Assembly (NCBI RefSeq): GCF_022846255.1
Contig: NZ_AP025682.1
DNA from: Escherichia coli
GTDB lineage: Bacteria > Pseudomonadota > Gammaproteobacteria > Enterobacterales > Enterobacteriaceae
DNA: 64,000 nucleotides
Direction: 5' to 3' (one strand)
Under the pieces are notes generated by a model. It saw nothing but the letters and a program-made list of their open reading frames with translations. It was not told the origin of the DNA and did not search any database. Position numbers and translations under genes: made by a program. Numbering within the stretch: the first letter of the stretch is position 1; every line of letters begins with the position of its first letter. Shown here one piece after another: positions 42,916 to 43,137 of this stretch.

Positions 42916-43137
42916 CATGCCGGATACGGCCTACGGATCGGCACAGACCTGTAGGCATGATAAGACGCGTCAAGCGTCGCATCAGGCATTGTGCGCCAGC
43001 TGCCGGATGCGGCGTGAACGCCTTATCCGGCCTACGGTTCGGCACAGACTTGTAGGCATGATAAGACGCGTCAGCGTCGCATCAGGCATTGTGCGCCAAC
43101 GGCCGGATGCGGCGTAAACGCCTTATCCGGCCTACGG
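42916..43137. repeat. BIME/REP cluster (three REP units alternating with two copies of a second palindromic unit)
   Basis: gccggatgcggcgtgaacgccttatccggcctacgg-type REP occurs three times, interleaved with two copies of tcggcacagacctgtaggcatgataagacgcgtca(a)gcgtcgcatcaggcattgtgcgcc; spans the yjjW-yjjV intergenic region. Confidence 0.85.

Follow-up and report, generated by a model that had tools for sequence, protein, structure and literature searches.

REP and BIME elements account for about 1% of the Escherichia coli genome. BIME-1 elements are built from z1 and y units, are present in single copy and have a long L linker that often holds an IHF site; BIME-2 elements are built from z2 and y units with short linkers, occur in multiple tandem copies and are conserved within a locus, their number varying between strains (Ton-Hoang 2012). 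In REP325, the array of the yjdM-yjdN gap, the hairpins have been labelled Y and Z2 (Qian 2015). This element acts locally, as a partly Rho-dependent attenuator of read-through that also protects the upstream mRNA from decay (Harris 2026 preprint), and among DNA-binding partners gyrase is the one documented for BIME-2; its cleavage sites are enriched in a subset of these elements and favour the Y REPs (Sutormin 2019).

The gap between yjjW and yjjV holds an element of this kind, listed for K-12 in EcoCyc as REP352a-h, which overlaps yjjV by 2 nt. Under SDS and copper stress the protection from exonuclease was raised in eight REP regions, of which REP352 is one, and it is the sole one of the eight for which RAREFAN predicted no RAYT association (2024 preprint, Nielsen and Hansen). 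The RefSeq record of K-12 lists no repeat feature in this gap. The window analysed here is a stretch of 64,000 nt of an E. coli genome (contig NZ_AP025682.1) that includes the same gap. The analysis established the anatomy, the subtype, the copy-number polymorphism and the origin within Escherichia of the array found there. The element itself, its family, the variability of its copy number and its overlap with the yjjV stop codon are already known, and the additions made here are minor: the exact anatomy of a two-unit allele, allele frequencies in a sample of genomes, two types of boundary with yjjV, and the order in which these states evolved.

Anatomy and subtype of the array

In matching E. 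coli genomes yjjW is annotated as a glycyl-radical enzyme activase of the YjjW family and yjjV as a metal-dependent hydrolase. The two genes converge, and the 216 bp between their stop codons consist entirely of repeats, except for three bases, CAT. The closest match to the locus was found in strain LF82, with 99.7-99.8% identity. The Y-REP consensus GCCGGATGCGGCGTNAACGCCTTATCCGGCCTAC is present twice with 0 mismatches, compared with 0 matches in 100 shuffled sequences, and a Z2-type consensus matches on the minus strand with 1 mismatch, where 0 matches are expected by chance; the Z2 label rests on comparison with REP325. Another copy of the Z2-type REP has a 1-nt insertion in its loop. Tandem Repeats Finder reported the segment 42927-43137 as a repeat of period 100 (2.1 copies, 94% matches), and the parse of 42919-43137 gave the order Y>, Z2<, Y>, Z2<, Y>, with tail-to-tail linkers of 16 nt and head-to-head linkers of 14 nt. 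The coordinates of all parts, together with those of other features of the window, are collected in Table 1.

Table 1. Features of the 64,000-nt window (positions and strands refer to the window)
Feature	Position	Strand	Remark
sok antitoxin RNA	1052-1204	+	Rfam, 120.5 bits, gathering level
tpke11	2589-2666	-	Rfam, 68.8 bits, gathering level
Threonine operon leader	16327-16446	-	Rfam, 121 bits, gathering level
yjjW	42052-42915	+	287 aa, stop TGA; from the ORF list
yjjW stop TGA	42913-42915	+	3 nt before the array
Internally deleted Y REP (GCCGGATACGGCCTAC plus GG)	42919-42936	+	Sequence GCCGGATACGGCCTACGG; remnant adjoining yjjW, aligns with the 3' half of the Y REP
Tail-to-tail linker 1	42935-42950	+	ggatcggcacagacct, 16 nt; linker family recurs in all alleles
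Z2-type REP number 1	42951-42987	-	37 nt, inverted relative to the Y REPs; hairpin near-identical to the Z2 of REP325
Head-to-head linker 1	42988-43001	+	attgtgcgccagct, 14 nt; from the parse
Y-type REP number 1, complete	43002-43035	+	0 mismatches to the Y consensus
Tail-to-tail linker 2	43036-43051	+	ggttcggcacagactt, 16 nt; from the parse
Z2-type REP number 2	43052-43087	-	36 nt, inverted; 1 mismatch to the Z consensus, 0 errors against the locus consensus
Head-to-head linker 2	43088-43101	+	attgtgcgccaacg, 14 nt; from the parse
Y-type REP number 2, complete, plus GG	43102-43137	+	0 mismatches (consensus match 43102-43135); CTAC foot contains the yjjV stop codon
yjjV stop TAG	43132-43134	-	Within the GTAG foot of the last Y REP
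yjjV	43911-43132	-	259 aa, stop TAG; from the ORF list
Y/Z2 pair, Rfam naRNA4 (RF02564) match	42954-43032	- (yjjV sense)	76.5 bits
Y/Z2 pair, Rfam naRNA4 (RF02564) match	43055-43132	- (yjjV sense)	78.9 bits

The first-pass annotation had described a BIME-type REP cluster filling the yjjW-yjjV gap and had proposed a REP/BIME pattern search as a check; the consensus matches and the parse bear the description out, the repeats lying where it placed them and far exceeding chance. Its count of three units of the type GCCGGATGCGGCG...CCTACGG holds for two complete Y REPs, the first of the three being internally deleted. The second palindromic unit of about 60 bp that it distinguished is indeed present twice, but it is not a separate kind of repeat, as it resolves into an inverted Z2 REP (36-37 nt) preceded by the 16-nt linker and followed by the 14-nt one. 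The deleted remnant next to yjjW is identical across all multi-unit E. coli alleles that were parsed, and it is read as an internally deleted Y REP because the corresponding position in E. albertii is taken by a complete Y REP.

Both strands of the array fold much better than shuffled sequence (z = -8.5 and -7.3). In the minimum-energy folds a Y REP pairs with the adjacent inverted Z2 REP, giving a long hairpin that resembles a REPIN; we infer that local hairpins of the single REPs are an alternative fold, likelier to form during transcription. Open reading frames that lie inside the array (42917-43117 on the plus strand, 66 aa; 42867-43055, plus; 42746-43045, minus) were rejected as coding, as they consist of repeat sequence, and they are considered artefacts because a unit of 100/101 bp is not a multiple of three and the frame is not kept across alleles. 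The significance of the element is mostly one of annotation, and calls such as 42917-43117 are an example of it.

With respect to subtype, the array has Y REPs, a Z2 partner, short alternating linkers without an L linker, tandem copies, and a number of copies that varies between strains; its Z2 partner (36-37 nt) equals the Z2 hairpin of REP325 except for the loop and one stem base. By its sequence it therefore agrees with BIME-2 in every point and with BIME-1 in none of those that set BIME-1 apart. In a BIME-1 (RIB/RIP), too, a Y REP and an inverted Z-type REP are paired at gene 3' ends, and on these grounds the array could be taken for such an element, with IHF binding where a transcription unit ends (3') as its main role. 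However, BIME-1 is single-copy, has a Z1 partner and carries its IHF site in a long L linker, whereas the partner in the yjjW-yjjV array is Z2 and not Z1, its linkers measure 14 and 16 nt, and it is arranged in tandem. Binding of IHF had been among the properties initially ascribed to the array, and this attribution failed: no L linker is present, and the IHF consensus WATCAANNNNTTR is absent from both strands of the array even with 1 mismatch allowed. The BIME-1 reading is refuted at the sequence level, and the probability left to it is practically nil. With high confidence, in a judgement made jointly with the explanation of its working given below, the array is identified as a BIME-2, namely an LF82-like two-unit allele of the K-12 element REP352.

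Other parts of the window also contain REP-like sequences. A second pair, at 25061-25138, is formed by an inverted Y-like REP (25061-25094, 3 mismatches) and a Z1-like REP (25109-25138, 4 errors) that lie 14 nt apart, between the convergent ORFs 24534-25070 (plus strand, 178 aa) and 25143-25469 (minus strand, 108 aa). From their sizes and the gene order of K-12 these ORFs are probably yjjX and trpR. The stop codon TGA of the plus-strand ORF (25068-25070) lies inside a REP stem, so that a REP overlaps a stop codon twice in the window, and the stop codon of the minus-strand ORF is 4 nt from the CTAC foot of the other REP. A degenerate REP-like palindrome at 50752-50785 (GTCGGATGCGGCGTACACGCCTTATCTGACCGAC, 6 differences from the Y consensus) is located about 140 bp upstream of three tandem tRNA genes (50923-51242) that correspond to leuQ/P/V in K-12. 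The Rfam matches to sok, tpke11 and the threonine operon leader (Table 1) indicate that the point where the standard E. coli genome numbering starts falls within the window, which runs in the reverse direction.

Copy-number variation and origin within Escherichia

Variation of the array between strains was followed with a search that used only the two coding flanks, joined, so that the span found in each genome measures the array. The flanks matched in 5,423 of the 5,426 complete E. coli genomes, with an array of varying unit number, and an assembly artefact or a chance palindrome was rejected on this account. Unit-number classes were assigned in an evenly spaced sample of 59 genomes, in which the spans differ by steps of 100-101 bp: about 556 bp (about 0 units) in 1/59 genomes, about 638 bp (about 1 unit) in 15/59, 739-759 bp (about 2 units, the class of the window allele) in 11/59, about 840 bp (about 3 units) in 6/59, about 941 bp (about 4 units, as in K-12) in 8/59 and about 1041 bp (about 5 units) in 18/59. 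The comparison of unit number between strains that had been proposed at the outset was thus positive, with steps of about 100 bp. Steps of this kind are what unequal recombination or slippage from one unit to another would be expected to produce, and such variation is already documented for BIME-2 (Ton-Hoang 2012). In the mechanism considered here the number of units would shift by either of these routes, acting between 100-bp units and possibly aided by a REP-associated transposase; no RAYT gene was found within the window.

The alleles that were parsed have gaps of 33, 116, 216, 314, 419, 518, 899 and 1117 bp. In the smallest (E. coli PRO_A-1505-6W-A_ESBL; locus L002, 457-493) one slightly diverged Y REP, GCCGGATGTGGCGTAAACGCCTTGTCCGGCCTAC, fills the 33-bp gap, with the yjjW stop codon 3 nt before the REP and the yjjV stop codon within its CTAC foot. 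The largest, of eleven units, belongs to a cryptic Escherichia lineage. The 899-bp allele of E. coli L16-131 (NZ_CM132215.1; locus L007, 2092-2990) has about nine units, and within it a block of 384 bp (four units) is duplicated with 100% identity; at the join of the duplication there is an 82-bp unit in which a truncated Z2 REP is fused to the next linker. This arrangement suggests that part of the array underwent a higher-order duplication recently. In practical terms the array is a length-polymorphic marker with steps of 100 bp, which could be used to type strains and will cause trouble in assembly from short reads.

Comparison with relatives gives an indication of how the repeats came to occupy this gap. 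In Enterobacter, Leclercia and Lelliottia there is no REP, and yjjV and yjjW share their last 6 nt in a tail-to-tail overlap. The overlap, found in seven loci of Leclercia, Enterobacter, Lelliottia and related genera, reads CTATAA or CTATAG and encodes Leu-stop on both strands, with no intergenic DNA. It probably represents the state before REP invasion. Citrobacter species mostly have short gaps (15-115 bp) with REP types of their own, and in Citrobacter youngae ATCC 29220 (locus L020, 3273-3748) the gap is occupied by a 481-bp tandem array of alternating inverted REPs with a period of 84, 5.7 copies and 96% matches. The array of C. youngae lies in the same convergent gap as that of the window, but differs from it in REP sequence type and in its 84-bp period, and scores below the naRNA4 gathering score. 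It is an independent colonisation, different REP families having entered the gap in parallel.

In E. albertii the gap measures 147 bp and contains one Y-Z2-Y set, with the complete Y REP adjoining the yjjW stop codon, and YjjV ends in ...FNVRG* with a stop codon of its own. As read from these comparisons, the order of events is one in which overlapping gene ends of the Enterobacter type were followed by REP invasion in Escherichia and then, in some E. coli lineages, by capture of the yjjV stop codon by the foot of a REP.

The yjjV stop codon, transcript ends and gyrase

That the array runs into the yjjV stop codon had been recorded by the first-pass annotation, and the observation is correct: the last REP has the tail CTACGG, which on the opposite strand reads CCGTAG, the end of yjjV. 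The gene ends in the window with ...AAC GTG CCG TAG, its TAG being part of the GTAG foot of the last Y REP, and the protein accordingly has the ending ...FNVP*, as it does in K-12 and some other genomes. In other alleles the ending of YjjV is ...FSVSG* or ...FSVRG* and the gene has a TAG of its own, beyond which 10 nt lead to no more than a truncated Y REP. A query specific for the latter junction was covered in 3,706 of 5,426 genomes (68%); the other types together number 1,720 at most, so that the boundary seen in the window is a minority form (at most about 32%). A direct count of the window-type boundary with a 100-nt query (2,211) was set aside as inflated, separate REP and yjjV pieces having been joined in it (one such match, H102, spans 200 nt). 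As yjjV of E. albertii keeps its own stop codon, the stop supplied by the REP is a derived rearrangement, one that on sequence comparison rewrote the last residues of YjjV from ...FNVRG to ...FNVP.

According to papers that cite Liang, Rudd and Deutscher (2015), REPs located 15 nt or less from a stop codon stall ribosomes and down-regulate translation. In yjjV the stop codon is inside the REP foot, at a distance of 0 nt, and REP352 is explicitly listed as lying within the 15-nt limit (2024 preprint, Nielsen and Hansen); past the yjjW stop codon there is only the deleted remnant, at 3 nt. It could be proposed from this that the main effect of the element is translational, the hairpin directly past the yjjV stop stalling terminating ribosomes, triggering trans-translation and lowering YjjV, with the remaining array as passenger DNA. 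Yet the other boundary, with just a truncated Y REP 10 nt past the stop, is found in about 68% of the E. coli genomes, and the outgroups have no REP at the yjjV stop; a translational effect can on this evidence not be a conserved function, and as the main effect it appears rather unlikely. In the window-type lineages themselves (K-12, LF82 and others) the hairpin 0 nt past the stop would, by the same rule, specifically lower YjjV through stalling and trans-translation and would amount to a lineage-specific regulatory mutation, a proposal that is tentative and on balance doubtful.

The remaining functional readings draw on sister elements, from which roles as 3'-end barrier, attenuator and gyrase target may be carried over to this array. 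No sigma-70-like promoter was found in the gap or at its edges. Two terminator-like sites were detected in the region scanned; both are inside yjjV, and their rate is no higher than in shuffled sequence. Stable G+C-rich hairpins in both senses, together with the report that about 40% of REPs between convergent genes fall inside earlier predicted bidirectional terminators (Harris 2026 preprint), would suit an array that works as a bidirectional intrinsic (Rho-independent) terminator common to yjjW and yjjV. Such a role is extremely unlikely in view of the absence of any hairpin followed by a T-run (the U tract of the RNA) in the gap, on either strand. Of the two activities first suggested for the array, that of terminator does not hold in its intrinsic form, and what would stand of it is a partly Rho-dependent attenuation by analogy with REP325; for that of mRNA stabiliser, the evidence from REP325 points to protection of 3' ends.

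The preferred explanation is that of a selfish repeat array that would serve as a bidirectional hairpin barrier at 3' ends and as an attenuator, that probably attracts gyrase, and that in window-type alleles may lower the translation of YjjV. By analogy with the elements described above, both convergent transcripts would run into the array, and the G+C-rich hairpins, formed in either sense, would block 3'-to-5' exonucleases and in this way set and stabilise the 3' ends of the mRNAs. Transcription that reads past the array, antisense to the opposite gene, would be attenuated by the same hairpins and in part by way of Rho, given that no intrinsic terminator is present. The Y REPs, as preferred gyrase sites, would suit a spot where convergent transcription builds up positive supercoils; neither yjjV nor yjjW is named in the accessible part of the supplementary text of the gyrase map (Sutormin 2019). 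In alleles such as that of the window, where the last codons of yjjV were replaced by the array, a 13-bp hairpin starts directly past the stop codon, and synthesis of YjjV may be lowered as a result of ribosome stalling.

The size of these effects has to be viewed with caution. The presence of REPs between convergent genes is correlated with raised expression of the two genes, and the contexts of REPs vary widely, with no general REP effect on mRNA half-life (Harris 2026 preprint); with such variance between contexts the effect at yjjW/yjjV could be small or absent. Moreover, natural alleles extend from one REP to eleven units and the window-type boundary is a minority form, which argues against strong selection on the size of the array or on the stop codon supplied by the REP, and fits a largely selfish or neutral repeat. 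The natural alleles, from one shared REP to eleven units and with two right boundaries, could be a ready-made test of the effects of REP dosage and position.

Comparison with naRNA4, REPINs, REP325 and REP352

Both Y/Z2 pairs of the array match the Rfam model of naRNA4 (RF02564) over its full length, on the strand that has the sense of yjjV and above the gathering score of 59.5 (Table 1). Two such hairpins were reported to be enough for an RNA to condense DNA with HU in vitro, and this held even for the antisense of naRNA4 (Qian 2015). These observations would be in line with an array that encodes naRNA4-like RNAs, in which a two-hairpin Y/Z2 RNA of about 77 nt would be cut from the 3' UTR of yjjV and condense the chromosome with HU. 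On the other hand, the model was built from REP325, which has the same design, and this accounts for its matches to the array. In K-12, moreover, the phnE-phnD gap (locus L008, 1250-1330, plus strand of the locus) gives a naRNA4 match of 69.1 bits, above the gathering score and outside REP325. As this gap and all REP352 units of K-12 are matched, RF02564 detects generic BIME-2 units; with this model the units of REP325 score 95-111 bits and the yjjW-yjjV units of K-12 75-80 bits, and the array is about 30 bits below REP325. Its linkers are unlike those of REP325 and there is no promoter-like site inside or beside the gap. Furthermore, deletion or overexpression of REP325/naRNA4 leaves the volume of the nucleoid unchanged and no long-range REP-REP contacts were seen (Harris 2026 preprint, whose authors include Adhya, an author of the original naRNA4 study). 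Taken together, this evidence makes a naRNA4-like role of the array very unlikely, and Rfam naRNA4 matches, here and elsewhere, are to be annotated as generic BIME-2 units rather than as a dedicated small-RNA gene.

REPINs, which are mobilised by RAYT (TnpA-REP), resemble the array in that inverted REP pairs of about 100 bp can form one long hairpin; the copy number of the array differs between strains, as described for BIME-2.

The design of the array is shared with REP325, in which a Y hairpin, a linker of 13-14 nt, a Z2 hairpin and a spacer of 16-17 nt likewise recur with a 100-bp period. Like the array, REP325 belongs to the 3' UTR of the gene upstream of it and has the sense of that gene, and its Y and Z2 hairpins are near-identical to those of the array. 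It differs in having six units between tandem genes, whereas the array is between convergent genes and has other linker and spacer sequences. On this comparison the yjjW-yjjV array is a paralogous copy of the repeat family and not the naRNA4 locus.

The nearest relative is REP352a-h of K-12, which has in common with the window the locus and its flanking genes, the Y and Z2 REPs, the linker families, the left remnant, and the right boundary over the yjjV stop codon. The two alleles differ in number, K-12 having four Y/Z2 units in a gap of 419 bp and the window two units in its gap of 216 bp.
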